DNA of 64,000 nt from Dehalococcoidia bacterium (GTDB taxonomy: Bacteria > Chloroflexota > Dehalococcoidia > Lucifugimonadales > Australimonadaceae). A program made the position numbers and the translations under genes. A model generated the notes under the pieces. The model searched no databases, was not told where the DNA came from, and saw only the letters and a list, made by a program, of their open reading frames with translations. The stretch's first letter is position 1. Each line of letters starts with the position of its first letter. This document shows, one piece after another, positions 5,601-60,603 of this stretch. The stretch spans positions 20,638-84,637 of the forward strand of contig DAOUJA010000017.1 of the NCBI GenBank assembly GCA_034423175.1, written 5' to 3'.

Positions 5601-5690
5601 CCGCGTGCGCTGCCCGCGCACTCTGGATTCCCGCCGGTGCGGGAATGACGGACCGCCAGCGTGGCGCCTTCTTCACGAGAACAACGCCCC
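5601..5690. repeat. dispersed hairpin repeat, family 1, copy b
   Basis: ccgcgtgcgctgcccgcgcactctggattcccgccggtgcgggaatgacggaccg, then a gtggcgccttcttcacgagaacaacgcccc tail that parallels copy a. Confidence 0.65.
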
Positions 5691-6741: not shown

Positions 6742-7419
6742 TTACTTCAGGGAAGAGGGGGACAAGGCCGGATGCAAACGATGCAAGCCATCCTCCAGTG
6801 TGTGCTGAACGGCGACGGCCCGTGCATACGACAATCCGCCCTTAGCGAGGTCGTCCAGAGCGCAGGCAAGGTCAGGGGCGAACTCCCGGACTTGGTCTGC
6901 CATCTCCGGCCGGGAGAGCGGCATGACTCCCCGCTTCAAGAGCAGGGCGCGCGCGAGGTGGCTGGCGGCGTACAGGGATTGCTCTTCGAAGGCGTCCGTG
7001 TCACCGGTCTCCAGGAGTTGCCGCGCCCATCTCAGCGACTTCCCTGCCCGCGCCACCTTGGCGGTCCAGTCCGGCGAGTGCGGGTGTCTCAGTTCGTCCG
7101 CCGCCGTCCGAGCCCACCAGCCATCGGGATCATGCAGCGCTTTGCCGTACAAGAGCGCCCAGACGGGATAATCATCGCCTTCGCCGAGCCGTTGCAGGAA
7201 ATGCGCCCTGCTCTCCTGTTGGAGATGGACCTCGATCGGGGGCCGGATGCCCAGCCGTTCTTCACCCGAGAAGACGACGAGCAGGTCGATGTCGCTCCGC
7301 CAGGTCTCGACGCCGCGAGCCGCCGACCCTATCAGGACGACTGAGGCGCGCGCGCTCAAGCCTGCCCTCTCCAGTTGCTGGAGCAGCCAGTCTCCATATT
7401 CCCTGGATCCTGTTTTCAT
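6742..7419 (-). CDS. nucleotidyltransferase-domain protein with C-terminal helical (KNTase_C/HEPN-like) region
   Basis: LIGSAARGVETWRSDIDLLVV (GS...DxD minimal NTase motif). The start overlaps the upstream gene's stop by 1 nt (TGATG on the minus strand). Confidence 0.7.
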   Translation of the reverse strand: MKTGSREYGDWLLQQLERAGLSARASVVLIGSAARGVETWRSDIDLLVVFSGEERLGIRPPIEVHLQQESRAHFLQRLGEGDDYPVWALLYGKALHDPDGWWARTAADELRHPHSPDWTAKVARAGKSLRWARQLLETGDTDAFEEQSLYAASHLARALLLKRGVMPLSRPEMADQVREFAPDLACALDDLAKGGLSYARAVAVQHTLEDGLHRLHPALSPSSLK

Positions 7420-7814
7420 CAGTCACCTGCCGAAGCGAAGAGCCCAGCCACCTCGTCGATAAAGGCCTCCAAGTCGGCGGCGAGATTCTCCAAGTCAACG
7501 TCGAGCAGATCCAAGCCGGGGAGACCGTATTGAACGTCCTTCCTGAGCTCGTTCAGCCGCTCCAGCTCGTCGCCGATGTCTCTGTGTACATGCTCGTTCA
7601 CATACAACTGACGCGCAACCGCGACCTTGTCGTAATGCACCCTTCGCCAAGGGAGGCCGAGCGCTTCAGCCGCCGCCACCACGCAGTTCTCGTAGGCATA
7701 GAAGGCCCAAGTGACGGCCTCTTCATGGTCTCCTGGGGGGAAAGCAGCGTCACTGACACGCTCCCAATGCTTGCGCGCCCTGTCAAGAGCGGCTTGCGCT
7801 TCCAAGCGTCCCAT
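7419..7814 (-). CDS. HEPN-like domain protein
   Basis: Helical 131-aa protein with AFYAYENCVVAAAEALGL and LNELRKDVQYG. It is paired and coupled with the NTase gene. Confidence 0.55.
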   Translation of the reverse strand: MGRLEAQAALDRARKHWERVSDAAFPPGDHEEAVTWAFYAYENCVVAAAEALGLPWRRVHYDKVAVARQLYVNEHVHRDIGDELERLNELRKDVQYGLPGLDLLDVDLENLAADLEAFIDEVAGLFASAGD

Positions 7815-9048: not shown

Positions 9049-10530
9049 ATGGCGCGCGTGATACTCGTGCTCGACCTCGGCAGCAGCCGCCTGCGATGCG
9101 CGGTCGTCCCGCTCGACGGGGACGGTGCGCCAGTGGAGGCAGCGCACACCCCCTACCCCGCCGCGAGCGACCGCGCCGGTACGCTGGCGCACTCCTACAA
9201 CCCGCGGCTGCTCCGGGAGCGGCTGCTGCGCGTGCTGGCGGAGGGTGCGCGGACCGCGGGTCCGTGCGCCGTGGCTGCAATCACCGTGACCGCGCAGCGT
9301 CTCGCGACGTGCTTCTTCGATGAGGACCTCAACACGCTGAGCGCGGGCGCGAACAACGACACGCGCGCCGTCTTCCAGGGCGGCGCGATGGACGACGTCC
9401 ACGGTCCGCTCATCTATCGCACGACGGGCCACCTACCCTCCATGCTGTTCGCGCCAGCCAAGTACGCGTGGTGGCGCGAGAACCGTCCACGAAGGGCACG
9501 GCGCATCGCCAGGACGGCAGGGCTCGACGCCTGGGCCGCGCTGCAGCTGACGGGAACGCTCGCCGAGACGACGCCGGGGCTCGCGGAGTCCGGTCTGCTG
9601 GACGTGACGTCCGGCGCGCCGGCAACGGCGCTTCTGGAGCTGCTCGGCGTGCCGCCGGAACTGCCGGCGGACATGCTGCCCCCGGACATAGCCGTTGGAC
9701 GTCTGACCGCGGAGGCGGCGGAGGCGACGGGCCTGCCGGGCGAGACACCCGTACACCTCGCGGGGCCGGACTCGCACGCGGCCGCGATCGGTTGCGGCGC
9801 TGCGACTGACGGGGCGGCGGCCTGCGCCGCGGGGTGGAGCGCGCCGGTGCAGGTGACGACGCCATCGCCCTCTTTCGACGCGCAGGCGCGGACGTGGACG
9901 TCACTGCGGGGGGTCAGCGGGAAGTGGGCGGTGGAGGCGAACCCCGGCGACACAGGGCGGATGCTGCACGCGGTGCGGCGGTTGATCGCGCCACGCGCAT
10001 CGCTCGCGCGGTTCGACGCACTGGTGCGCTCCGCCTTCGAGAGCGGCAAGCCGGTCGCCGCGTTCCTCGGCCCGCGCGCGATCGACCTCTCCAACCCGGG
10101 CATCACGATGGGGGGCGTACTGATGCCCGCACCCATCACGCAGGAGGGGCTGGACCCCGCCGACGTCGCCCGAGCCGCCTACGAGAACGCCGCGTTCGCC
10201 ATCCGCGAGAGTCTCGAACTCGCGCGCAGCGTGGCCGGCAAGGGAACCGGGCCGTTCGCGCTCACCGGCGGGCTGGCGGAGAGCGCCGTGTTCCCGCAAC
10301 TGCTGGCCGACGCGCTGGGCGAGCCCGTGCGCGTGCACCGCAACGCTACGGCAACGGGTGCGGCGGCGCTGGCAACGACGCCCGCGAACGAACTCACGGG
10401 ACGCTGCTCGGACCTCGCGTCGAACGGCGTCAGCGTCGAGCCGGGGCCGCGTTCGCGGGAGTGCGGGGAGTCGTACGAGCGGTGGCTGAGGCTGCGGGAA
10501 CGGCTGGATGCGCTGACGGAGGATCTGTAG
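9049..10530 (+). CDS. FGGY-family carbohydrate kinase
   Basis: ILVLDLGSSRLRCAV N-terminal phosphate-1 motif and a C-terminal LTGGLAESAVFPQLLADALGEPV pattern. Confidence 0.75.
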   Translation: MARVILVLDLGSSRLRCAVVPLDGDGAPVEAAHTPYPAASDRAGTLAHSYNPRLLRERLLRVLAEGARTAGPCAVAAITVTAQRLATCFFDEDLNTLSAGANNDTRAVFQGGAMDDVHGPLIYRTTGHLPSMLFAPAKYAWWRENRPRRARRIARTAGLDAWAALQLTGTLAETTPGLAESGLLDVTSGAPATALLELLGVPPELPADMLPPDIAVGRLTAEAAEATGLPGETPVHLAGPDSHAAAIGCGAATDGAAACAAGWSAPVQVTTPSPSFDAQARTWTSLRGVSGKWAVEANPGDTGRMLHAVRRLIAPRASLARFDALVRSAFESGKPVAAFLGPRAIDLSNPGITMGGVLMPAPITQEGLDPADVARAAYENAAFAIRESLELARSVAGKGTGPFALTGGLAESAVFPQLLADALGEPVRVHRNATATGAAALATTPANELTGRCSDLASNGVSVEPGPRSRECGESYERWLRLRERLDALTEDL

Positions 10531-10645: not shown

Positions 10646-10721
10646 ACACTCCGCCACGCCCGCATCCCGCGAGACTAACGATCGCCCTCGACTCCAACCT
10701 CGCGGGATCGATGAGGGCGAG

Positions 10722-10787
10722 GTTCCTGCCTGCGCAGGAACGACGGAAGAGGCACAGGAACGACGGATGAGGCACAGGAACGACGAA
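10722..10787. repeat. GTTCCTGC-N4-GCAGGAAC hairpin followed by three tandem copies of AGGAACGACG-containing 19-20 bp units
   Basis: Read directly as gttcctgcctgcgcaggaacgacggaagaggcacaggaacgacggatgaggcacaggaacgacgaa. The same perfect 8-bp stem occurs at 53841-53860. Confidence 0.6.
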
Positions 10788-11502: not shown

Positions 11503-11882
11503 AGGTGCCCCCGTTCCTGCTCCGCAGGTTGTACGTGAAGGGCAGCCTGACTGCGACGGCCGACGGTTTCACGTTCCAGCTGCAGAACAGGCTCGGCTCC
11601 GGCTACGCGAAGCGGATGCTGCCGCTGACGCTGGACGGCGAGTCGCTGGACATGGCGACGTCGATATTCGAGATCGACGGAGAGGAGACGGTCTTCGACG
11701 CGGTCTCGGAGAGCGTGCCGTTCACGCTCGCGATGAACAAGACGACGACCATCGCCTACCGCGGCGGCGCGGTGACGCCGGGCCCGCACAGGGTCGGCAT
11801 GGCATTCGAAGTCGCGGGTCTCGGAGAGCTCGGGTTCGACTTCACGGACGAGGCTGCCGCGACAGAGCGCGGGACGGGGTGA
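11499..11882 (+). CDS. hypothetical protein (127 aa)
   Basis: ATGA overlap with the aldolase stop and GTGA overlap with the next gene. High-GC codon pattern; no family recognised. Confidence 0.5.
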   Translation: MKVPPFLLRRLYVKGSLTATADGFTFQLQNRLGSGYAKRMLPLTLDGESLDMATSIFEIDGEETVFDAVSESVPFTLAMNKTTTIAYRGGAVTPGPHRVGMAFEVAGLGELGFDFTDEAAATERGTG

Positions 11883-18422: not shown

Positions 18423-18448
18423 AAAGAAAACCACAGGAGGTGGTCACC

Positions 18449-19465
18449 ATGACCAACAACGGTTCAGTCCCTGTCACGATACGGTTGGGTAACCAGGACT
18501 TCATCTTGGAGAGGAAGGTGGTGCCCATCGATTGGCTGAAACTCGACCCTCGCAACCAGCGCCTCAGCCACGCACTGACCCAAGAGGGCAACACTCCGTC
18601 CGATGCCCGGCTCCAAGAGCTGCTGTGGTCTATCGACGCGGTGAAGGACCTCTACCAAAGCGTCCTTCAGAATGGCGGCCTCATTGACGACCCCATCGTC
18701 ACTCAGGAAGGGGTCGTTGTGGAAGGGAACTCGCGGACGGTCGTACTCCGTGAACTCCATAAGAAGTACCCAGCGGATCCGCGATGGAAAGAGACCTACG
18801 TTCGGCTCCTGCCACCTGACGTTACGCCTGAGCAAATCGTCACTCTGCTGGGAGAACTCCATATCGCAGGAAAGATCGAGTGGCGGGCCTACGAACAGGC
18901 AGAGTACGTCTGGCGCATGAACAAGGAGTTTGGACGCACCTACGATTTCCTCGCTGCCCACTTACGTTGGTCTCGGTCAAAGATAGCCCAGAAGATCGGG
19001 GCCTTCGAGGAAACTCGGGTCTACTTGGCTGAGTATGCTGACCCCCAGGGAGTAAACCGCTTCTCCCACTTTGAAGAGTTCATGAAGAAGAAAGACCTCC
19101 GCGAGCGCCGTGAGAGCGACCCTCTCTTCATGAAGGAGTTCAGACAGTGGGTGCATCAAGGGAAGTTCCCAGGCGCAACGGACATGCGCATCCTGCCGGA
19201 CGTGCTCGCGAACGACAAAGCACTAGCAGCGCTCCGAGAGTACAACATCCAATCCGCAGAGGCGGTTTTGAATGACGCTGACCCCTCGCGGAATTCCGAT
19301 CTGTACTACAGCGTTGACCAGACATGTCAGCAGCTTCGCAACGTGCCTCTCTCGGAAGTCAAGGCACTTCAGCACGGCTCTCCCACAAAGCTTGCGAAAC
19401 TCGCTGAACTACAAGCCGCTCTCGATGAACTGGCGCAGATGGCAGGGATCAGCGTGAGGCGCTAG
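18449..19465 (+). CDS. ParB/Srx N-terminal-domain protein with HTH
   Basis: VPIDWLKLDPRNQR, DPIVTQEGVVVEGNSRTVVLREL and a candidate HTH YDFLAAHLRWSRSKIAQKI. G+C about 53-56 percent. Confidence 0.7.
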   Translation: MTNNGSVPVTIRLGNQDFILERKVVPIDWLKLDPRNQRLSHALTQEGNTPSDARLQELLWSIDAVKDLYQSVLQNGGLIDDPIVTQEGVVVEGNSRTVVLRELHKKYPADPRWKETYVRLLPPDVTPEQIVTLLGELHIAGKIEWRAYEQAEYVWRMNKEFGRTYDFLAAHLRWSRSKIAQKIGAFEETRVYLAEYADPQGVNRFSHFEEFMKKKDLRERRESDPLFMKEFRQWVHQGKFPGATDMRILPDVLANDKALAALREYNIQSAEAVLNDADPSRNSDLYYSVDQTCQQLRNVPLSEVKALQHGSPTKLAKLAELQAALDELAQMAGISVRR

Positions 19466-20799: not shown

Positions 20800-20908
20800 C
20801 CCCGTGTGAAACCGGGCGAGATTCCTGCCTCCGCAGGGATGACGAAGCTGCGCGCCGCTGAGGCCGCGCTACCCCGACGCGCCCATTATACGGCAGGGCG
20901 AGGAGCCC

Positions 20909-25338: not shown

Positions 25339-26238
25339 TCCACCGCACTCGCCCGCGCCGAGGGCCGCGACTACGAGCACGCGTCTGTATTGTTGGAGCG
25401 GATCGCGAAAGAGCGTCAGGCCCGGTGGGAATCCAGTGATAAGAGGCGAGGTCAGTACAAGGCACCCACTACACCAGACACTTCCATTCTGCCAGAACTT
25501 CCTCCAGGATGGGTTTGGGGTAGCATAGAGCAGATATCTGAAGTTGGCACAGGCTCCACTCCCCTCAAATCCCGATCGGAATTCTATGCGAATGGAACCG
25601 TCCCTTGGGCTACCAGTTCAGCGTTAAATCACCCTGAAATCCGTGCTCCCATAAGCTTTGTTACGGAGAAAGCCGTCCAAGAGTGCCATCTGTCGTACTA
25701 TCCGCCGCACACTTTGCTTGTCGCAATGTATGGCGAGGGCAGGACGCGTGGTAAGTGCGCCGAATTGATGTTCCACTCAACAATCAATCAGGCAATTGCC
25801 GCAATAGTAATGGAAGAATCTGCTGCGAACTGTCGTCACTACACTAAACTGTTTCTCGAAAGCAACTACATAGAGACTCGGCGGCTCTCTTCGGGTGGAG
25901 TACAACCGAATCTAAACCTCACATTGATTAAGGAGATTGCTGTTCCACTGCCGCCCTCGGCAGAGCAACTACGCATCATCGCGGAGGTGGATCGAAGACT
26001 GTCGGTAGCAGGGCAGGCCGAGGCTGCGCTTGAGGCCAACCTGAAGCGCGCCGAGCGGCTGCGGCAGGCCATCCTCAAACGCGCGTTCGAGGGTCGGCTC
26101 GTTCCCCGGGACCCGGACGACGAGCCCGCCTCGGTGCTGCTGGAGCGTATCAGGACGGAGAAGGCGAGCAAAGAGCGGGAGAGGCCAGGGAGGAGGAGAC
26201 TGGAATATCTAGTACCTACGAGTGAGTATGCGGAATAG
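25339..26238 (+). pseudogene. hsdS: type I specificity subunit fragment (central conserved region, one TRD, C-terminal conserved region)
   Basis: ASVLLERIAKERQ...LPPGWVWGSIEQISEVGTGSTP...GGVQPNLNLTLIKEIAVPLPPSAEQLRIIAEV...ASVLLERIRTEKA. There is no ATG between the junction and the TRD. The G+C falls to about 50 percent in the TRD. Confidence 0.6.
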
Positions 26239-27202
26239 CCACCCACTGGCGCTGCGGCACCATGTTGATTCCCCTCTTTATGCATCTCGTGATTAGCATC
26301 CTCCCGTCAAGCCTGGAATCTTCTGCTGCGTTCATGTAGTGACTGATAACAGAATCTATTGTGCTTTCTGTTTCTGGGTCGTCTATGAGCAATCCCAATC
26401 TGATCATACCTCCCATGCTATGGTGGGTGCCGAAACTCACATAGTCGAACAAGTCGCGATTCATAACGAATTGGTAGATGGCAGGATATTCAAGCGACGT
26501 GAATGGACTCCATTCGTGCATATCGCACCAATCCTTGACAGTTGTTGGAGTTTTATTGGCGCGAGAAGGGTGCGCGCAGAAACCTTCTTCAATGCCCCAG
26601 AGGACCATTCCCATGGTGTTGTCGGGTTGGTAGTGCTGGCAATTTTGACAAGCTGCGCCACCGTGACGGTCAAATGGCGTTCCCGTTTCAGGGAGTAGTG
26701 TAATCAGCCTCCAGTGTTTCATGTTGCTTACAAACACAGCCCTATGAGGCACACCGTCTATGAAGCCTTGCAACACCAATCTTATTTCGCCATTCTTATC
26801 CTCTTCTCGGAGCGGCACCGCGTTAGCAAAATCAAACCTGCTGATCTCTGGCCAATCCGTTCTCTTTCCGTCATCTTTCGATGCGTGGTACCGTCGGTTT
26901 CTCTTACTCCACTCGACAATACCGAACGGCGTGGCGATTGCTTGGCTGTCGCAATGCGGGCATACCTCCAGCTGGCCACCTGTGGACAACCAAGCATGAA
27001 TGCCGTCAGGGGCACGTTCGCACTTGCCGTCGCGTGCCCTTCGTTCCTTCTCCATCAGTGCGTCGCGGTCGTAAACGCTCATCAGGTTTGCGCATCGCTC
27101 ACACCAGCGCGCGCCAAGCGAAAGCCTCTCGGCTACGATGCCGTCTGCATCGCCACAGAGAGCGCCGCCATTAGGGCGAACCTTATGAACAACGACGGAC
27201 AT
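26216..27202 (-). CDS. Cys-rich hypothetical protein (328 aa), no family recognised
   Basis: AAGGGAG SD 7 nt before the ATG. Three CxxC pairs (CERC, CPHC, CQNC). G+C about 50 percent. The 3' end overlaps the hsdS fragment's 3' end by 23 nt. Confidence 0.6.
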   Translation of the reverse strand: MSVVVHKVRPNGGALCGDADGIVAERLSLGARWCERCANLMSVYDRDALMEKERRARDGKCERAPDGIHAWLSTGGQLEVCPHCDSQAIATPFGIVEWSKRNRRYHASKDDGKRTDWPEISRFDFANAVPLREEDKNGEIRLVLQGFIDGVPHRAVFVSNMKHWRLITLLPETGTPFDRHGGAACQNCQHYQPDNTMGMVLWGIEEGFCAHPSRANKTPTTVKDWCDMHEWSPFTSLEYPAIYQFVMNRDLFDYVSFGTHHSMGGMIRLGLLIDDPETESTIDSVISHYMNAAEDSRLDGRMLITRCIKRGINMVPQRQWVAIPHTHS

Positions 27203-49728: not shown

Positions 49729-49741
49729 GGGGCAGCCGGGC

Positions 49742-51685
49742 ATGACCACATTCACGACGAATCCCGTCACTCTCAAGACGCTGCTCCAACAGGTGAGCAG
49801 CGGAGAGATACGACTGCCCGACTTCCAGCGCGGGTGGATATGGGATGACAATCGCATTCGGGAACTGCTAGTAAGCATCTCGCGAGGTTTTCCCATCGGA
49901 GCCGTTATGACACTCCACACAGGGGGTGACATCAATTTCAACACTCGCTTGGTTCAAGGAGTGAATAACCAACAGGCCATAAGTGAGGTAAATCAATTCC
50001 TTCTCGACGGTCAACAGCGGCTTACTTCTCTATGGCAAGCACTAATGTCCCCAGAGCCAGTCTTGACCAGAGACAACCGCGGTGGCCACATCGAGCGTTT
50101 GTACTACGTTGATGTTCTCCAGGCGTTAGACGACTTTACCGATCAAGAGACGGTTGTTCGCAGTGTACCTAGTAACAGGCAGATAAGAGATTTCCGGCGT
50201 GAAATGATACTCGATGTTTCGACTCCTGAACTTGAATATCAGAACCATCTAATTCCTACCTGGCAAGTATTCAACGCAGTGAATTGGATATTTGGCTACG
50301 ATGCCTATTGGCGTGAGCAAGGCCGCGAGCATCCTAGTGGGGACCTCAACCTATTTAGGGAGCGTATTCAAAATGAGATAAGTAATGCTTTTGCCGGATA
50401 TAATATACCCGTCATCGCTTTAGGTGCAGAAACTCCAAAAGAAGCTGTCTGCACTGTTTTCGAAAAGGTCAATACAGGAGGTGTCCCTCTCACAGTTTTT
50501 GAGTTAGTGACCGCTTCATTTGCCGCAAGCGACTTCCCATTGCGGGACAACTGGGATGAGCGGCGTAAACGAATGCGTCGAGAATCTGTTCTCCACGGCA
50601 TTGAAGGCGAACAGTTCTTACAGGCTGTTGCGCTCCTGGCAACTCAAGAACGCCGGAGAGCCAAGGTTCAAGAGCAACCTGATGCTCCTCCCAACCAGAT
50701 TCCTCGTATCGGTTGCCAGAAACGCGATGTCCTCAGCTTGACTCTCGATGAATACCTAGTTTGGGCAGACAAGGTTGAACAGGGCTTCTTCGAAGCGGCA
50801 AAGTTCCTTCATTCGCAGTACGTCTTCAATGCTTGGGACGTACCCTACGCTACGCAACTAGTGCCGCTCGCAGTGCTATTCGTAGAACTCGGTAGCGACT
50901 TGGAAGACGCCAATGCAAGGGAACGACTGGAACACTGGTACTGGTCGGGAATCTTCGGCGAAGCCTACGGGAGCGCCATTGAGACACAGTACGCGCGCGA
51001 CTTGGAGCAGGTGGCAGTATACGTTCGGACGGGTGCAGAGCCCTTACTAGTGGAGGAGGCTAACTTCGTTCCCCAACGACTCCTCACCCTTCGGACACGC
51101 AACATCGCGGCCTACAAGGGGCTTTACGCTCTCCAAATGAAGAGCGGCGCGGCTGATTGGCGTACAGGCGAAAAACTCACCTTGGCAACCTACCATGACG
51201 AGGCCATCGACATTCACCATATCTTCCCTGTCGCATGGTGCCAAGCAGACCCACCCATTCCTGCAGACCTGTATAACTCCATCATCAACAAGACTCCTAT
51301 CGACGCAGGCACCAACAGGAGGATCGGCGGACGAGCACCTTCCGAGTACCTCCCTAGGCTCAGGACCCGCTATTCCAACCTTGACGAAGCCCTCCAAGCC
51401 CATTGGGTCAACCCTGAGCACCTAGAAGAGGACGACTTCTACACCAGTTTCATCGAGCGGGGTGAGCAGATGCTCAGCCTTATCGGCAATGCGATGCGGA
51501 AGGACATACAGGGTGGGAGAGAAGTGTTCCGCACCGCACTGCTTCGAGGCATGCCTGAAGACCTCATTCCTGAAGGCGAAGCCGAAGATGCAGACGACGA
51601 TGCCGAGCTACAGGAGTTCGACGACAACGAAAATGAGTATGATGACGTGAGTAATGCCGAGTACGGCGTAGAAGACGACGAATAG
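49742..51685 (+). CDS. GmrSD-type protein (N-terminal DUF262 ParB-like NTPase, C-terminal DUF1524 His-Me finger nuclease)
   Basis: LPDFQRGWIWDD, LLDGQQRLTSL and C-terminal AIDIHHIFP...NSIINKTPIDAGTNRRIG. G+C about 50 percent. Confidence 0.85.
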   Translation: MTTFTTNPVTLKTLLQQVSSGEIRLPDFQRGWIWDDNRIRELLVSISRGFPIGAVMTLHTGGDINFNTRLVQGVNNQQAISEVNQFLLDGQQRLTSLWQALMSPEPVLTRDNRGGHIERLYYVDVLQALDDFTDQETVVRSVPSNRQIRDFRREMILDVSTPELEYQNHLIPTWQVFNAVNWIFGYDAYWREQGREHPSGDLNLFRERIQNEISNAFAGYNIPVIALGAETPKEAVCTVFEKVNTGGVPLTVFELVTASFAASDFPLRDNWDERRKRMRRESVLHGIEGEQFLQAVALLATQERRRAKVQEQPDAPPNQIPRIGCQKRDVLSLTLDEYLVWADKVEQGFFEAAKFLHSQYVFNAWDVPYATQLVPLAVLFVELGSDLEDANARERLEHWYWSGIFGEAYGSAIETQYARDLEQVAVYVRTGAEPLLVEEANFVPQRLLTLRTRNIAAYKGLYALQMKSGAADWRTGEKLTLATYHDEAIDIHHIFPVAWCQADPPIPADLYNSIINKTPIDAGTNRRIGGRAPSEYLPRLRTRYSNLDEALQAHWVNPEHLEEDDFYTSFIERGEQMLSLIGNAMRKDIQGGREVFRTALLRGMPEDLIPEGEAEDADDDAELQEFDDNENEYDDVSNAEYGVEDDE

Positions 51686-51701
51686 CGAGGTGTAGGAGAA
51701 C

Positions 51702-53039: not shown

Positions 53040-53828
53040 ATGTCCCGCGAGATCGACGAGATCAAGTACGAAGTCGCAATGGCAACCCGCATCCTCTCCC
53101 ACATGGGCCTCGCCACCGGCGTGACCGCCGCCCTGGGACACGTCAGCATGCGCGTCCCCAACCAGCCCGAGCTGTTCGTGGTCAAGGGCCGGGGCTACGC
53201 CATCGACGCCCTGGAGGAGATGCAGTACTACGACATGATCGTCTGCGACCTGGACGGCTACAAGGTGGACGGCCCCGCGCGCTCCACGCAGTGCTCGGAG
53301 GTCAAGATCCACTCCTCCATCATGAAGGCGCGCCCGGACGTGAACTCGGTCGTCCACGTGCACCCGCGCAACGTCGTCCTCATGACCGTCCTCGAAGAGC
53401 CCATCCGACCGATGGCGCAGGAAGGCTCGCAGATGGTCATGGAGCAGCCCCACCCGGTCTACCCCCACACCAAGACCGTCTGGAGCCACGAGGAGGGGCT
53501 GGAGCTCGCGGAGTGCCTCGGCGACCACAAGTTCGTCCTCATGAAGGGCCACGGCGCGTCCATGACCGGCAACGACCCCCAGGACTCCGTCGTCAGCATG
53601 CTCCAGTTGGAGGAGCAGGCGCGCATGAACTACTGGGGCCTCGTCGCCAAAGGCTCGGACCACCCATACCTCTCCGACGAGCTCGTCATGGAATCATCGA
53701 ACCGCCCGCGCCAGGACGAGTACCCGCACTTCAAGGAGCTCATGCGCCGCATCGGCGGCAACCCGCCCCGCGACGGCGTCTGGAACTCCTACAAGAAGAA
53801 GGTCTCCGGCGACATGATCGCCCCGTAA
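53040..53828 (+). CDS. class II aldolase/adducin family protein
   Basis: GHVSMRV, IHSSIMKARPDVNSVVHVHP and LMKGHGASMTG. Confidence 0.8.
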   Translation: MSREIDEIKYEVAMATRILSHMGLATGVTAALGHVSMRVPNQPELFVVKGRGYAIDALEEMQYYDMIVCDLDGYKVDGPARSTQCSEVKIHSSIMKARPDVNSVVHVHPRNVVLMTVLEEPIRPMAQEGSQMVMEQPHPVYPHTKTVWSHEEGLELAECLGDHKFVLMKGHGASMTGNDPQDSVVSMLQLEEQARMNYWGLVAKGSDHPYLSDELVMESSNRPRQDEYPHFKELMRRIGGNPPRDGVWNSYKKKVSGDMIAP

Positions 53829-53910: not shown

Positions 53911-53968
53911 TCGCAGGATGCGTTGACACGACCTTCCTTACCTGACTATCCTGAAAGTAAGGGAATCC

Positions 53969-57034: not shown

Positions 57035-57796
57035 TCAGTACGCGGGAACGAGGTCGCGGAAGCGGTCGAACTCTGGGGGCAACAACCGCAGCAAGTCATC
57101 TGCCGTCATGCCATACACGTCATAGGTGAGGGAGAGATGATTCAGCACCGCCAGTAGCCGGGGCAAGCTGCCTGGAGGAGCCGCGGCATTGCTCATACCG
57201 CGCGTGCCCTCACGCAGCCGCCCAGTTCCTCTATCGGCGTACAGCAAATGCGCGAGGCGGACGACTCCCCTAGAACGAAAGACCTCCGGAGCCTGAACCA
57301 GCCGCAGTGTGAACTGGCTCATCGAACTAACAGGGTCGTTGAGCAACAGCCACGCATCCTCGCCGTGCCGCGTCCAGACATCGTAGGCGATCAGCAACCG
57401 ATGGTGAGAGCGGTCGCGCGAGTCTCGATTCACTGGATCAATCAGGTAAGCTGCCTCAGAGTATTCACCAATTCTACGCGCGCTATCCATGTCGCGTCTG
57501 GTGACCGCTTCCAAGTAAAACATCGCCAGCCACGACCACATATATGGATTATTGACGCCCCCAACAGCGGCAATAGGCTCAAGTTGCTGCGCAAGGTACT
57601 GACCTGCCTCCCTCCGATCCGCGAAGTCCCGCACCTGCACATACGCCTCCGGCTCCAAGGGTTCCGAATACCTATGGTCAGACAGCAACCCGGATGGTAG
57701 CTGCATCCACCCAATCTCGCGTATCGATTTCAGATATATCTTGGCCTGAAGCATGCCCTCTGCTGTTAGTTCACACACCACTGCACGTTCGGTCAT
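57035..57796 (-). CDS. GHKL-operon gene C, hypothetical protein (253 aa)
   Basis: ATG at 57796 lies 7 nt after the gene B stop with a GAGG SD. No motif recognised. Confidence 0.6.
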   Translation of the reverse strand: MTERAVVCELTAEGMLQAKIYLKSIREIGWMQLPSGLLSDHRYSEPLEPEAYVQVRDFADRREAGQYLAQQLEPIAAVGGVNNPYMWSWLAMFYLEAVTRRDMDSARRIGEYSEAAYLIDPVNRDSRDRSHHRLLIAYDVWTRHGEDAWLLLNDPVSSMSQFTLRLVQAPEVFRSRGVVRLAHLLYADRGTGRLREGTRGMSNAAAPPGSLPRLLAVLNHLSLTYDVYGMTADDLLRLLPPEFDRFRDLVPAY

Positions 57797-57803
57797 AGCT
57801 GCC

Positions 57804-58556
57804 TCAACGCTGGCCCAACGCGGCCGCATAGAAATCACTGGCATGGAAGTGGCGCTTCGTGAACGCCGCAACCGCCGCGTCAATCCAGTCCATTCGCGCC
57901 TCTCGCTCATCTCCGTCCCCATCGGATCCGAGCGGTTCTGCGTAAAAGCCGCGCACGAACTGCATCAATTCGCTCCAGTCGCCGCCCTCGTCATCAGGCG
58001 CGTAGTTGTCCACGACGAGCGCCCTCGTAAGCATCGCTCGCAGCACCTCCGGCATCACCAGACCCCGAAAGGCATTGTCGTGAAGAACTGCCTCGCCAAT
58101 GCCGTGGATGTTCTCGTTCACCAGTAGCGTGGGAGCACCTGTGCCGGCAAATTGCAAGCGCCAAACCTCTTTCCCTAAATCCTCTCCCTTCAACCAAACG
58201 AGTGAACCGTAGTGCTGCTCTCGGTGTGGCCTGACGCGGTTCGCCATCGCCAGCAAAACGCCCGATCCATCAGGTGTAACGACTTTAACTCGAAATGAAG
58301 GATTCACCGGCATATCCATCAGGCGACGGTCAAGCGGCGGAGCCAAGGCCCCTACTTCCCCCCATGCAAACCTGAGGGCAGCTCGTCCGCTGTACGCTTC
58401 AATGATCACCGACGCGTCGGACGGCAATTCTAGCCCGTCTAGATTTAACTCTGCCGTAAACGCTGGCGGTGCGCCATCATCCCTTTCCTCAATTCTGACG
58501 GCGACGCGCTGCTGGTCGATGCGTTTGCGCTCGGTGAAGTTAAACCTACGTATCAT
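57804..58556 (-). CDS. GHKL-operon gene B, hypothetical protein (250 aa)
   Basis: ATG at 58556 is preceded by GGAGG at 9 nt and overlaps the gene A 3' end by 11 nt. No motif recognised. Confidence 0.6.
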   Translation of the reverse strand: MIRRFNFTERKRIDQQRVAVRIEERDDGAPPAFTAELNLDGLELPSDASVIIEAYSGRAALRFAWGEVGALAPPLDRRLMDMPVNPSFRVKVVTPDGSGVLLAMANRVRPHREQHYGSLVWLKGEDLGKEVWRLQFAGTGAPTLLVNENIHGIGEAVLHDNAFRGLVMPEVLRAMLTRALVVDNYAPDDEGGDWSELMQFVRGFYAEPLGSDGDGDEREARMDWIDAAVAAFTKRHFHASDFYAAALGQR

Positions 58557-60537
58557 CGCTCGCGCCTCCACCGCCGGACCGACCATCATCAGTCCTCTGC
58601 ACGTCTACCAATAGGTCACGGCGAGCATCGAAACCCCGCACTGTCACGAAGAAAAGCGCCGGGGAGTCGATCTCCAAGAGCAACTCATTCCCCTTCTCGC
58701 CGTTCACAATTCGGCAGCCTTCTACGGTCACATCGAGCGCGCGTCCCCCATGGAGTCGAAAATCATGGGGGTTGTAGCTGGTCATTGCGTTCCCACGCGG
58801 AACCTCATAGGCAGCCCGCAGCCGAACGCGGCTGGGCGGTTTCTCAACACCTGATGCCAGCCGCAGACCAAACCCACCGTTCACCTGATGCAGGTCAAAG
58901 TCGGGGTGATGTGACGGGGGATCGGGATGGATCGGAATAGGGCCTTCCGGCGGTGCTCCATCTCGGCTCCTACGCGGTCGAGGACCGCCCCCAGCAGGGA
59001 AAATGTCAGCGAGCGCGTCCTTTTGCAGGCCCACCGGGGTCGCTTCCCAGATACTGAGGAGCGCCAATGGTGCCTCGCGGACTTGCTTGATGCGCCGATA
59101 AGGTGCTACCCACCGCTTCCCAACCCGCTCGTCCTGCGGGCGCCAGGATGTATGCGCTGGCGGCTCCGAGTCGCGCAGCATAGCCGCCAACGGCTCCTGC
59201 TCATCCACAATCAACAGTGTCCTAGCTGGGCGATGACCCAAGAAATCCTTCTCGGGTATGGAGAGCATGCCGCGAACATAGTAATCGTGCCCGCGAGGCA
59301 GCGAGTCGTCATGCTGCACGTATAACCGGAAAGACGTCTTCCGTTTGGGTTCGTTCTTCCTTTCGACCGTCATACCAACCCGAAACGCGAGCAGTTCGCC
59401 GCTGTCGTACCGAGAGCGCAATTCGGCAAGCTCTGCCCGATGTGTGTACCCTTGCGCATTCCGAGGAGGCGTACTCAGTTCCATATGCCTGTAAGCTGGG
59501 TCAAGCGCGGTTCGGCACATTTCAAATAGCCGCCGATAGCTTTCCTGGCTTCGCTCTCCACTGCTCTCCAAAGGGAGGCGTGTCAAGACTTCGTCTATCG
59601 TGTCCGCGTTGACTTCAACCGGCTCAGTGTCCTCTCCTTCATCCACTATCACCTTCAGCCGCCCCGCGATGATGGCGTAGAAGTAGTTGTGCGTCACAGC
59701 GTGCAGCACTTGCTCCCTGCTGATCTGTTCCTCCTCGTCAACGCGGGGGAAGGGAACGATCACAGACAGGCCGGGTTCCTCGCGAAAGCGTAGCCCGAAG
59801 TCGGCGATGCACTGCTCAACAAAGGATCGGTGCGCCGACTCCGACATCCGCAACGGAACAGGTAAGCCCTGTTCATCCTCTTCGGCGAAGAATCCATATG
59901 GTGCGTACCGATGTCCCTCGATAGTGTGCTTTGTAAGCACCGATTGCCCCATCAGAAGTGTCTCGCCGTCGGAGCGTCGACGCGTTACGGCGATATACGC
60001 GCTTGCGTGCGACGCGTCAGGAAACACCCACTTACCCAGCCCCCAAGAGCCGCCGTCCTCGTCTCCCTTGCCGGAACGCCCAATGTTGCGGAAGAACCAG
60101 TAAAAGTGATTGTTGTCGGCAGGCTCCTCTTCGGAGTCATCATACTGCCGCCAATCACCCTCCAGCCCGACCGTTCCAGCATCTTCCACGACTAGGTATT
60201 GCATCTCCTTGTCAGCCAGCCCACGCAACGTCGTTAGTCGACGGAAGTCGTCATCCCGGTCAAGCCCTTCCTTCAGGTGCTCATCCAATCCGTCCAAATA
60301 CTCGGATGCCCTGATTGCATCCAAGGGTTGATGAACGCCCTGCAGGGAAAACCGTACGCGAACCGGCTCGCTCGTAGAGCGATCCACACGCGCAATGCTG
60401 GCGTCGAGCGAGTTCTGCACCACCTCCCGGACGAGGCGCTCATTGAGGCTCTCTTCTGCAAACAGCTCCCGTTCCATCGGGTTCTGATTGATCTCCGCAG
60501 GTGACATCTCGCGGAAGCGCCAGTGCACATCGACCAT
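58546..60537 (-). CDS. GHKL-operon gene A, Bergerat-fold (GHKL/HATPase_c-like) ATPase with long uncharacterised C-terminal region (663 aa)
   Basis: N-box LVREVVQNSLDAS, G1 box YLVVEDAGTVGLEG and G2 box DGGSWGLGKWVF, in canonical order. The ATG at 60537 is preceded by GGGAG at 9 nt. Confidence 0.7.
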   Translation of the reverse strand: MVDVHWRFREMSPAEINQNPMERELFAEESLNERLVREVVQNSLDASIARVDRSTSEPVRVRFSLQGVHQPLDAIRASEYLDGLDEHLKEGLDRDDDFRRLTTLRGLADKEMQYLVVEDAGTVGLEGDWRQYDDSEEEPADNNHFYWFFRNIGRSGKGDEDGGSWGLGKWVFPDASHASAYIAVTRRRSDGETLLMGQSVLTKHTIEGHRYAPYGFFAEEDEQGLPVPLRMSESAHRSFVEQCIADFGLRFREEPGLSVIVPFPRVDEEEQISREQVLHAVTHNYFYAIIAGRLKVIVDEGEDTEPVEVNADTIDEVLTRLPLESSGERSQESYRRLFEMCRTALDPAYRHMELSTPPRNAQGYTHRAELAELRSRYDSGELLAFRVGMTVERKNEPKRKTSFRLYVQHDDSLPRGHDYYVRGMLSIPEKDFLGHRPARTLLIVDEQEPLAAMLRDSEPPAHTSWRPQDERVGKRWVAPYRRIKQVREAPLALLSIWEATPVGLQKDALADIFPAGGGPRPRRSRDGAPPEGPIPIHPDPPSHHPDFDLHQVNGGFGLRLASGVEKPPSRVRLRAAYEVPRGNAMTSYNPHDFRLHGGRALDVTVEGCRIVNGEKGNELLLEIDSPALFFVTVRGFDARRDLLVDVQRTDDGRSGGGGASDDT

Positions 60538-60574
60538 GGATGTGATCTCCCTTCTGAAAGTGCCAGATCGGGGG

Positions 60575-60603
60575 ATGCTAGCAATGCAGACCCATTGAAA
60601 CAA
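60575..60603 (-). promoter_or_regulatory. possible sigma-70-like promoter for the GHKL operon (TTGTTT-17 nt-TAGCAT on minus strand)
   Basis: The reverse complement of 60598-60603 is TTGTTT and of 60575-60580 is TAGCAT, with an exact 17-nt spacer about 38 nt upstream of the ATG at 60537. Confidence 0.3.

Follow-up and report, generated by a model that had tools for sequence, protein, structure and literature searches.

A predicted GmrSD/BrxU-type nuclease gene segregates as old, recombining alleles at a catabolic operon junction of SAR202-cluster Chloroflexota

In this study, we examined a 64,000-nucleotide stretch (here called the window) of contig DAOUJA010000017.1 from the Dehalococcoidia assembly GCA_034423175.1, in which an open reading frame (ORF) for a 647-amino-acid DUF262 protein stands between an amidohydrolase gene and a gene for a Rieske-type oxygenase. 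The ORF is an insertion between these two genes. It behaves as an accessory gene that segregates and recombines at this operon junction, and it makes an unusually clear case for old mosaic alleles and repeated integration. Its sequence and a structural model suggest that the product is probably a stand-alone, NTP-switched GmrSD/BrxU-type His-Me finger nuclease with a role in restricting phages or other mobile genetic elements (MGEs).

RESULTS

The junction is filled in some relatives and empty in others

A genome scan with the amidohydrolase yielded 25 orthologous loci (87 to 97% identity), all in metagenome-assembled genomes of Dehalococcoidia/SAR202-cluster Chloroflexota. In 18 related species-level genomes the amidohydrolase and Rieske genes are directly adjacent at a distance of 14 to 140 nt, which bears out the insertion proposed in the initial annotation. 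A homolog of the ORF lies between both genes at four scanned loci (L013, L022, L027, and L029), and it is missing from 18 of the 22 loci that keep both flanking genes. Five more metagenomic contigs, found via the protein, show the order GYD, Amidohydro_2, DUF262 gene, Rieske/LigXa_C, and aldolase II. In total, this gives 18 empty and 10 filled orthologous sites, i.e., the window and nine other genomes. A one-off insertion, as initially envisaged, does not agree with the nine further occupants of the same slot, and the synteny in these genomes rules out a recent private insertion.

The composition of the ORF differs from that of its surroundings, as had been noted at the outset. Its G+C content is 0.526 compared to 0.672 and 0.667 in the two neighbors, and its G+C content at third codon positions (GC3) is 0.56 compared to 0.95. 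The codons AAT, CTA, and ACA, absent from three flanking genes (0 per 1000), occur at 12 to 23 per 1000 in the ORF. At every filled locus, the gene in the slot has a GC3 of 0.54 to 0.72 versus 0.77 to 0.98 in the adjacent genes. The initial annotation had named a conserved position combined with native G+C as the pattern that would speak against an insertion; the position is indeed conserved, but the G+C content is native in none of the filled loci.

In the window and at the nine other same-slot loci, the immediate neighbors are catabolic (GYD, Amidohydro_2, Rieske/LigXa_C, and aldolase-II), and no BREX or other defense system adjoining the ORF was found there. The gene is thus solitary as described, with no adjacent defense partner within the window. 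No integrase or transposase gene accompanies the insert, and the unit consists essentially of the ORF alone. The amidohydrolase gene, the ORF, and the Rieske gene lie on one strand, separated by the short spacers reported initially (Table 1). In the left spacer, a purine-rich AGGGGG run overlaps the amidohydrolase stop codon. The right spacer is native intergenic sequence that carries the AGGAG ribosome-binding site of the Rieske gene and is common to empty sites; the string CGAGGTGTAGGAGAAC also stands 5' of the Rieske ATG in the empty loci L006 to L020.

Between the amidohydrolase and the aldolase-like gene, neither a sigma-70-like promoter nor an intrinsic terminator above chance was detected, a result that has to be read with the caveat that Chloroflexota promoters may deviate from the sigma-70 consensus. 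A promoter-like site was found at 53923-53952, upstream of the downstream MazE-PIN pair only. Given spacers of only 13 and 16 nt and no sigma-70-type signal, transcription of the ORF by operon read-through is plausible.

Alleles of the slot are older than the operon that carries them

Comparison of the window with L001, L002, L004, and L005 revealed flanking proteins of ~95% identity and DUF262 proteins of 73 to 85% identity. Synonymous divergence (dS) is 0.18 to 0.29 in the flanks and ranges from 1.0 to saturation for most pairs of allele segments. The ratio of nonsynonymous to synonymous divergence (dN/dS) is 0.06 to 0.10 in every comparison, with 0.07 for the window against its nearest allele segments. 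With dN/dS at 0.1 or below despite saturated dS, the excess divergence of the alleles reflects age and not relaxed constraint. Fast protein evolution in situ was rejected as its cause on the same values.

All same-slot alleles are intact ORFs except for a frameshift in the tail of L002, and together with purifying selection (dN/dS ≤ 0.1) this indicates that the gene is very probably functional. Gene calls of 576 to 592 amino acids in relatives, considered as truncated pseudogenes, were found to result from start-codon choices, the full ORFs being intact save for the L002 tail. In L002, the frameshift at 11650-11800 gives a call of 576 amino acids; the tail remains encoded in the out-of-frame DNA, which shares ~95% identity with that of the window. 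A sequencing error in this 5x-coverage contig is as likely an explanation as a real mutation.

These data also bear on the idea that the ORF serves a host function of the operon or is a decaying pseudogene without a current role, which we consider extremely unlikely. Tight spacing, the shared strand, and the lack of a detected promoter of its own would suit an operon function, but the operon evidently works without the ORF, since 18 of 22 loci with both flanking genes do not have it. Its foreign codon usage (AAT, CTA, and ACA) and the restriction-modification context of the family elsewhere also argue against this function, and a pseudogene is ruled out by the intact ORFs and the low dN/dS.

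The window allele is a chimera of two haplotypes

Sliding-window identity showed that the first 1.1 kb of the window ORF resembles L001/L013 and the remaining 0.85 kb resembles L002. The 5' half differs from L001/L013 by a dS of 0.41 (~90% nucleotide identity) and the 3' half from L002 by a dS of 0.20 (~95%), whereas the reciprocal half-gene comparisons give only 50 to 73% identity. A maximum chi-square of 361 was obtained for one breakpoint (Table 1), a value reached in 0 of 2000 permutations. To its left, 282 of 317 informative sites are L001-like; to its right, 214 of 230 are L002-like. Judged from these alignments, the window allele is a recombinant of two deeply diverged haplotypes. Its N-module comprises the DUF262 domain and half of the linker, and its C-module the rest of the linker, the nuclease domain, and the tail.

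Gain and loss at the slot

The two flanking genes gave a backbone tree in which filled sites are interspersed with empty ones, and several near-identical backbones differ in state (L013/L019, L002/L015, L003/L026, and window/L007). Losses of the insert do occur: at the empty site of L014, ~28 nt from the start of the ORF survive as a deletion scar joined to a REP-like hairpin, and that of L007 keeps GACGACGAATAG, the last codons of the ORF.

A REP/MITE-like palindrome, CGTCATTCCnGCGnAGGCnGGAATCC, was observed four times in the window versus 0 expected (1310-1335, 5625-5650, 10720-10745, 20819-20844 (-)). It is also present in the amidohydrolase-Rieske junctions of L005, L012, and L014, and in L014 the element abuts the ORF remnant at a common CCCGTCA string.

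The junctions differ among the core clade, L003, L022, L027, and L029. Inserts of the core clade are preceded by CAGCCGG and followed by ACGAnGA...CGAGGTGTAGGAGAAC. In L003 the insert is flanked by an exact 15-bp direct repeat, GACGCATAAGCGAAG, that includes the amidohydrolase stop codon and is present as one copy in the related empty site L026. In L022, a ~90-bp imperfect direct repeat bounds the insert and spans the Rieske ribosome-binding site together with 57 nt from the start of the Rieske ORF. The Rieske translation signals are preserved in every filled case, and junction inspection revealed no conserved end motifs or inverted repeats at the boundaries of independent inserts. In the window, the first copy of the 9-bp repeat ACGACGAAT corresponds to codons 5 to 7 (family-conserved T-T-N) and the second takes in the final codons and the first base (T) of the stop codon. 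An ACGAnCGA string resembling this repeat is native to empty junctions, and such microhomology may have guided integration or excision/deletion.

Two lineages carry additional sequence next to the insert. In L022 (9153-9230), the upstream repeat copy, with the duplicated first 19 Rieske codons and 6 new codons, forms a 25-codon leader ORF. The stop codon of this leader shares the string ATGA with the DUF262 start, a sign that the insert may be coupled in translation to a fossil of the host gene start. In L029 only, a 228-amino-acid NYN plus OST-HTH/LOTUS protein (9218-9904; GC3 of 0.71) is encoded just upstream of the DUF262 gene, with which it was inserted.

In half-gene neighbor-joining (NJ) trees, the core alleles (window, L001 to L005, and L013) group together for both halves. 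The L022 allele is nearest to the homologs P0012/P0015 and then P0013, the N-terminal half of L029 is nearest to P0023, and L027 is nearest to P0009 and then P0023. P0012, P0013, P0023, P0016, and P0022 lie in unrelated neighborhoods, with a defence-island-like region around P0012. Most likely, the slot has been colonized more than once, as judged from these sequence comparisons; the polyphyly of the slot alleles depends on the NJ trees, which carry no bootstrap support.

By contrast, a single ancient insertion with vertical descent and repeated losses, in which the diversity would stem from faster evolution of a weakly constrained gene, appears quite improbable. Such a history would agree with the clustering of core alleles in both half-gene trees, with the losses shown by the deletion scar, and with two allele segments whose dS is like that of the flanks. 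It is contradicted by saturated dS at a flank dS of 0.2 to 0.3 and dN/dS of at most 0.1, by the clearly chimeric window allele, and by the deviating junction structures of L003 and L022. Moreover, the L022 allele and the N-terminal half of L029 have their nearest NJ homologs in other contexts, and GC3 is still 0.54 to 0.72 beside genes of 0.77 to 0.98.

In 150-nt windows of the flanks, identity was equal for filled-filled, empty-empty, and filled-empty pairs without fixed differences, and no association of single-nucleotide polymorphisms with the filled or empty state was found at any distance from the junction. Since no transferred tracts are seen in the flanks, flank-mediated recombination is inferred from the mosaic and the tree. 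The absent association also argues, at the level of sequence, against homing-type co-conversion.

This null result is relevant to a further alternative, namely that the ORF is a selfish homing-like element whose nuclease cuts at or close to the empty junction so that repair from a filled allele copies the gene in, with defense being secondary or absent. Free-standing HNH/GIY-YIG homing endonuclease genes spread in this manner between conserved genes of phages. One intergenic slot between highly conserved genes with presence/absence polymorphism, an ORF-only unit of foreign composition without integrase or transposase, an HNH-type nuclease, and a deletion scar fitting a gain-decay-loss cycle are what homing would produce, and it would explain the repeated colonization of the slot by different lineages, a recurrence otherwise unexplained. 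We nevertheless regard this alternative as very unlikely. In addition to the missing flank signal, insertion points and junction types vary by lineage, both domains are under strong purifying selection in old, intact alleles, and the 647-amino-acid protein has an NTPase switch domain and a full-length BrxU fold. Clade members elsewhere stand amid restriction-modification genes and on plasmids, with no recurrent host slot.

The product is predicted to adopt a BrxU-like fold

The ORF encodes a DUF262 NTPase domain followed by a helical linker, a His-Me nuclease domain, and an acidic tail. Pfam assigned residues 11 to 260 to GmrSD_N/DUF262 (PF03235; E = 3e-28, 99.7 bits at a cut-off of 33.2), and the DUF262 signatures mentioned in the initial annotation, RLPDFQRGWIWDD (residues 24 to 36) and LLDGQQRLTSL (residues 87 to 97), are present in the translation. 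The sole C-terminal Pfam match was a sub-threshold hit to HNH_4 (residues 475 to 503; E = 0.04 to 0.12). DUF1524 (PF07510) gave no match at E ≤ 10 with either the whole protein or its C-terminal 347 amino acids, and no NCBIfam model matches the protein, whose C-terminal half thus stays unrecognized. PADLOC listed PDC-M55C as the best match, followed by HEC-05 (= BrxU), NsnA, and SspE, all covering the N-terminal domain only, and single-sequence and profile searches of the PDB reached this domain only. An exact-sequence look-up of the 647-amino-acid protein returned no record.

An AlphaFold2 model built on 51 homologs had a mean pLDDT of 85.9. Using Foldseek, the only significant PDB match was BrxU (7p9k_A), which aligned over the full length (E = 5.1e-12, probability 1.00, 650 aligned columns); the runners-up had E ≥ 0.2, with Cas9 HNH (NmeCas9-HNH) as a weaker local match. 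Identity to BrxU is ~15%, and the Foldseek TM-scores are low (0.38 to 0.42) because the domain orientation differs. Together with PF03235, the modeled fold supports membership of the product in the GmrSD/BrxU structural family, in line with the GmrSD-type assignment made initially.

Known motifs of the GmrSD family are QR, (I/V)DGQQR, FxxxN, and E/D-H-N-N (Machnicka et al. 2015). In the 51-sequence alignment A2, by which invariance was judged, Q29-R30, D89-G-Q-Q-R93 (preceded by L88), F240-E-K-V-N244, H492, H493, F495, P496, N516, and N525 are invariant. The nuclease motif is contained in IDIHHIFP (residues 489 to 496), and the model shows strands for residues 489-493 and 517-521, followed by a helix (522-528). 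The canonical D/E position is occupied by His, and D490 lies two residues upstream. Colicin-type nuclease sites have the pattern HH-N-H. H492-H493...N516...N525 is compatible with such sites and would be a colicin-like "HH" variant, which departs from the D/E-H-N-N motif stated for the family. DIHHIFP aligns with DHIYP of BrxU and EHICP of HEC-06, in which mutations of D/E and H abolish defense. Also invariant is S45, which aligns with BrxU S42, the residue controlling the dimer/monomer switch. Of the DUF1524 His-Me region announced in the initial annotation, the motif and a BrxU-like fold were recovered and a match to the family profile was not; the His-Me finger is supported by the predicted structure, and the label "DUF1524" rests on motif and predicted fold.

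An acidic tail is general in the clade

Of the last 45 residues, 22 are D/E and none is K/R, in keeping with the acidic tail pointed out initially. Within its own clade, the protein is not exceptional in this respect. EFDDxExEYDxVGxxAY, present here as EFDDnENEYDDVsnAEY, was found near the C terminus of ~72 to 76 of 117 close full-length homologs. Members of the wider clade lack the specific motif, and their final 50 positions include a median of 13 acidic versus 6 basic residues. From these alignments, the acidic tail is a trait of the whole clade and not a peculiarity of the window's copy. By a weak alignment, BrxU (587 amino acids) seems to end at the equivalent of residue ~595. Residues 618 to 647 are predicted to be disordered (pLDDT of 31 to 39), and this predicted disorder is the sole evidence behind the speculation that the tail might act in autoinhibition or DNA mimicry.

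The wider clade keeps company with restriction-modification genes

A full-length search returned at least 7999 clusters at 90% identity, and clade members have a uniform length of ~630 to 655 amino acids with DUF262 as the sole annotation. The C-terminal module (residues 364 to 647) retrieved 246, 915, and 1813 clusters at 50% identity for E ≤ 1e-30, 1e-10, and 1e-3, respectively. In a survey of ~100 neighborhoods at 40 to 58% identity, recurrent same-strand neighbors were SNF2/ResIII helicases, type III and type I methylases, HsdS, DUF4391, and WYL proteins, with same-strand helicase or methylase neighbors in about one-third of wider-clade members. The clade reaches plasmids of bacteria and archaea; on conjugative plasmids, the gene stands beside methylases, an HNH endonuclease, a helicase, and an EVE-domain protein. 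This defense-island company supports a role in immunity for the clade. One fixed partner gene was not found in the wider clade, the recurrent neighbors being generic restriction-modification components.

The papers found in the literature neither name nor characterize a clade member, and searches for PDC-M55 and for SAR202 defense yielded no paper and nothing specific, respectively. Phage carriage amounts to only four phage records, weak or unannotated, and 19 IMG/VR contigs at ~40% identity; these matches do not support viral delivery of the SAR202 alleles. On three contigs (L201, L202, and L203), the 61%-identical member P0022 lies ~500 nt from an IS200/IS605 tnpA-tnpB pair, which could serve as a vehicle between loci.

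The neighborhoods also speak to whether the ORF is an orphan part of a multi-gene system (SspE-like or Menshen/PDC-M55-like) that has its partner (a DNA-modification module, an OLD/ABC ATPase, or a helicase) elsewhere in the genome and senses the modification state of the host and not that of phages, which we consider unlikely. Points in favor are the best PADLOC match to PDC-M55C, part of a multi-gene candidate system, ahead of NsnA and SspE, the helicase or methylase neighbors of a third of the wider clade, and AriA/OLD-like ATPases in the next slot of the operon in L004 and L023. However, the sequence matches to SspE, NsnA, and PDC-M55C cover the DUF262 domain only, and the neighbors are catabolic in the window and the nine same-slot loci. 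Furthermore, no partner co-varies with the ORF, as the ATPase is present in L004 and not in the window, L001, L002, or L013, and BrxU, GmrSD, and HEC-06 act as single proteins.

Other variable genes in and around the operon

The next junction of the same operon, from the Rieske to the aldolase gene, is a second variable slot. It holds AriA/OLD/GajA-like AAA_15/AAA_21 ATPases in L004 (13402-14946) and L023 (11086-12795) and a recurrent low-GC3 protein of 225 to 278 amino acids without a family match in L015 (10477-11196), L025 (10429-11106), and L027 (12353-13189).

In the window, a pair of a MazE/AbrB-type antitoxin and a PIN toxin (53969-54214/54180-54587, plus strand) is located between the aldolase-like and sulfite/nitrite-reductase genes. 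The PIN toxin gene has a GC3 of 0.76, below that of its neighbors, and L004 and L005 carry PIN pairs in another junction of the cluster. Single low-GC3 genes (0.58 to 0.77) also occur among metabolic genes with a GC3 of ~0.9, at 18440-19465 (+), 26216-27202 (-), 57035-57922 (-), 58546-60603 (-), and 6742-7419 plus 7419-7814 (-). They include a ParB-like protein (PADLOC PDC-M38A, E = 1e-9), a PDC-M33A-like protein of 685 amino acids (E = 3e-18), an NTP_transf_2/HEPN protein, and two genes without a family match. The defense-like genes of the window appear as single inserts and do not form an island.

Table 1. Coordinates of the ORF, its parts, and its neighbors in the window
Feature	Position	Strand	Basis or remark
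Amidohydro_2 family host gene, upstream, 367 aa	48625..49728	+	GC3 0.95
Left spacer, 13 nt, amidohydrolase stop to DUF262 start	49729..49741	+	
GmrSD/BrxU-like ORF, 647 aa, ATG start	49742..51685	+	ORF list; PF03235; Foldseek match to BrxU
ACGACGAAT, 9-bp direct repeat, copy 1	49754..49762	+	
DUF262/GmrS ParB-Srx-like NTPase domain, residues 11-260	49772..50521	+	Pfam E = 3e-28
QR motif, F28-Q29-R30	49823-49831	+	Within DUF262 domain
DGQQR motif, residues 89-93	50006-50020	+	Within DUF262 domain
FxxxN motif, F240-N244	50459-50473	+	Within DUF262 domain
Recombination breakpoint, ~codon 358-361, inside helical linker	50812..50824	+	Maximum chi-square and sliding-window identity
Predicted beta-beta-alpha His-Me (HNH) nuclease core, residues 489-528	51206..51325	+	Model and invariant residues
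DIHHIFP, residues 490-496	51209-51229	+	Nuclease core
N516	51287-51289	+	Nuclease core
N525	51314-51316	+	Nuclease core
Acidic C-terminal tail, residues 603-647	51548..51682	+	Conservation across homologs; pLDDT
ACGACGAAT, 9-bp direct repeat, copy 2	51675-51683		
Right spacer, 16 nt, CGAGGTGTAGGAGAAC	51686..51701	+	
Rieske/LigXa_C-type oxygenase host gene, downstream, 424 aa	51702..52976	+	GC3 0.95
Class II aldolase-like gene, 3' of Rieske gene	53040-53828		

DISCUSSION

We propose a model in which the ORF encodes a nuclease of the GmrSD/BrxU type kept as a polymorphism in the host population. By homology, the ParB/Srx-like DUF262 domain (QR, DGQQR, and FxxxN) would bind and hydrolyze NTP as a conformational switch, upon which the C-terminal beta-beta-alpha His-Me finger would cleave DNA. 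As with type IV restriction enzymes, phage DNA that is modified or in some other way non-self would be the likeliest target, with dependence on modification being suggested by analogy to the relatives. A regulatory role would be the most plausible one for the acidic tail, which is predicted to be disordered and has a conserved aromatic-acidic motif; the tail might fold back on the DNA-binding surface or recruit a partner. The slot represents a long-lived polymorphism of an empty allele and several deeply diverged filled alleles. Homologous recombination reshuffles these alleles inside the gene and probably also through the conserved flanks, and deletions and, most likely, independent integrations add variation. 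Insertion spares the downstream ribosome-binding site, and operon read-through would supply transcription. An immunity gene under frequency-dependent selection by phages would be expected to show the observed pattern.

Several points weigh against this model. The C-terminal half escapes both the DUF1524 profile and NCBIfam, His replaces the canonical D/E, and the similarity to BrxU is low in identity and TM-score. SspE, a member of the same family, senses phosphorothioate, so the trigger of the enzyme in the window could differ. With respect to population history, the half-gene trees are without bootstrap values, the flanks do not reflect the state of the slot, and read-through depends on a promoter consensus that Chloroflexota might not share.

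In a more far-reaching version, to which we give a low probability, the ORF would be an ORF-only mobile defense cassette that repeatedly enters operon junctions. Entry could occur by its own His-Me nuclease in a homing-like manner or by Campbell-type integration of a circular intermediate via 15 to 90 bp of homology, keeping the downstream translation signals so that the host operon's transcription could be used. The acidic aromatic tail would then be an intramolecular DNA mimic that holds the nuclease off until triggered, and selection for a low dose of the nuclease would account for the persistently poor codon adaptation.

The clade around the GmrSD/BrxU-like ORF is large and widespread, yet annotation pipelines give "DUF262" only and current nuclease profiles miss it. 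The HH variant and the conserved tail set it apart from BrxU, GmrSD, and SspE in concrete ways that can be tested. The locus offers a clean natural experiment in uncultured SAR202 bacteria, with empty, filled, and mosaic alleles older than the backbone, and illustrates how immunity genes persist and are exchanged where defense-like genes stand singly between metabolic genes. GmrS and GmrD domains were earlier expected not to be transferred separately (Machnicka 2015); a natural chimera of the N-module and C-module of a GmrSD-like enzyme runs against this expectation.

Among known systems, SspE, the phosphorothioate-sensing DUF262-DUF1524 nickase of SspABCD-SspE (PDB 6jiv), resembles the product in its N terminus (PADLOC E = 1.9e-8; PDB E = 0.005 to 0.017) including DGQQR. 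However, this match covers residues ~2 to 98 only, SspE is 771 amino acids long and gave no fold match, and the neighbors of the ORF within the 64 kb are Amidohydro_2, Rieske, and aldolase II by Pfam and not ssp or dnd genes. With GmrSD (EcoCT596 GmrS/GmrD and Eco94GmrSD, which act on glucosyl-hmC DNA), the product shares the GmrSD_N domain, QR/DGQQR/FxxxN, the H-N-N core, the single-chain fusion form, and a distribution prone to horizontal gene transfer (HGT); it differs in the missing PF07510 match, in HH replacing D/E-H, and in the acidic tail.

BrxU (PDB 7p9k/7p9m; HEC-05 of PADLOC) is a BREX-associated type IV enzyme whose defense function has been validated experimentally and depends on DGQQR and the nuclease motif. 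It has the same DUF262-linker-His-Me architecture and DGQQR, and the alignments of S45 with S42 and of HHIFP with DHIYP fit this likeness. In contrast to BrxU, and at ~15% identity, the window protein has His at the catalytic Asp and, by weak alignment, ~45 to 60 extra acidic tail residues; its RLFDS motif is partly kept as ELLVS, and its gene lies outside BREX or any other defense system. HEC-06 is a protective GmrSD-like single-gene defense in Hma systems that requires DGQQR and nuclease-motif residues (Payne et al., bioRxiv 2024). As another divergent GmrSD-like single protein, it shows that distant GmrSD-like clades are real defenses. Unlike the gene in the catabolic operon, HEC-06 is embedded in a defense system; its nuclease motif is EHICP, and the PADLOC matches to it are weak (E = 3e-4 to 3e-3, N terminus only).

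At the level of the locus, the E. coli "immigration control region" hsd-mcr-mrr reportedly shows cassette-like variation of restriction genes at a fixed slot. Conserved flanks, diverged contents or an empty state, and exchange by flanking homologous recombination are common to both. The slot described here differs in being a single intergenic junction of a metabolic operon with one ORF and no detected promoter of its own, and its alternatives are alleles of one family that also recombine within the gene. Free-standing homing endonuclease genes share the intergenic insertion, conserved flanks, presence/absence polymorphism, and HNH-type nuclease, whereas co-conversion of flanks and a single insertion point are not seen here. 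We conclude that the ORF is of a known kind, an HGT-prone GmrSD-family nuclease with cassette-like variation at a fixed locus, and not a new category. What differs from these systems is an uncharacterized clade with an HH active-site variant that the DUF1524 profile misses, a conserved acidic tail, and the unusual placement of an ORF-only unit inside a catabolic operon.

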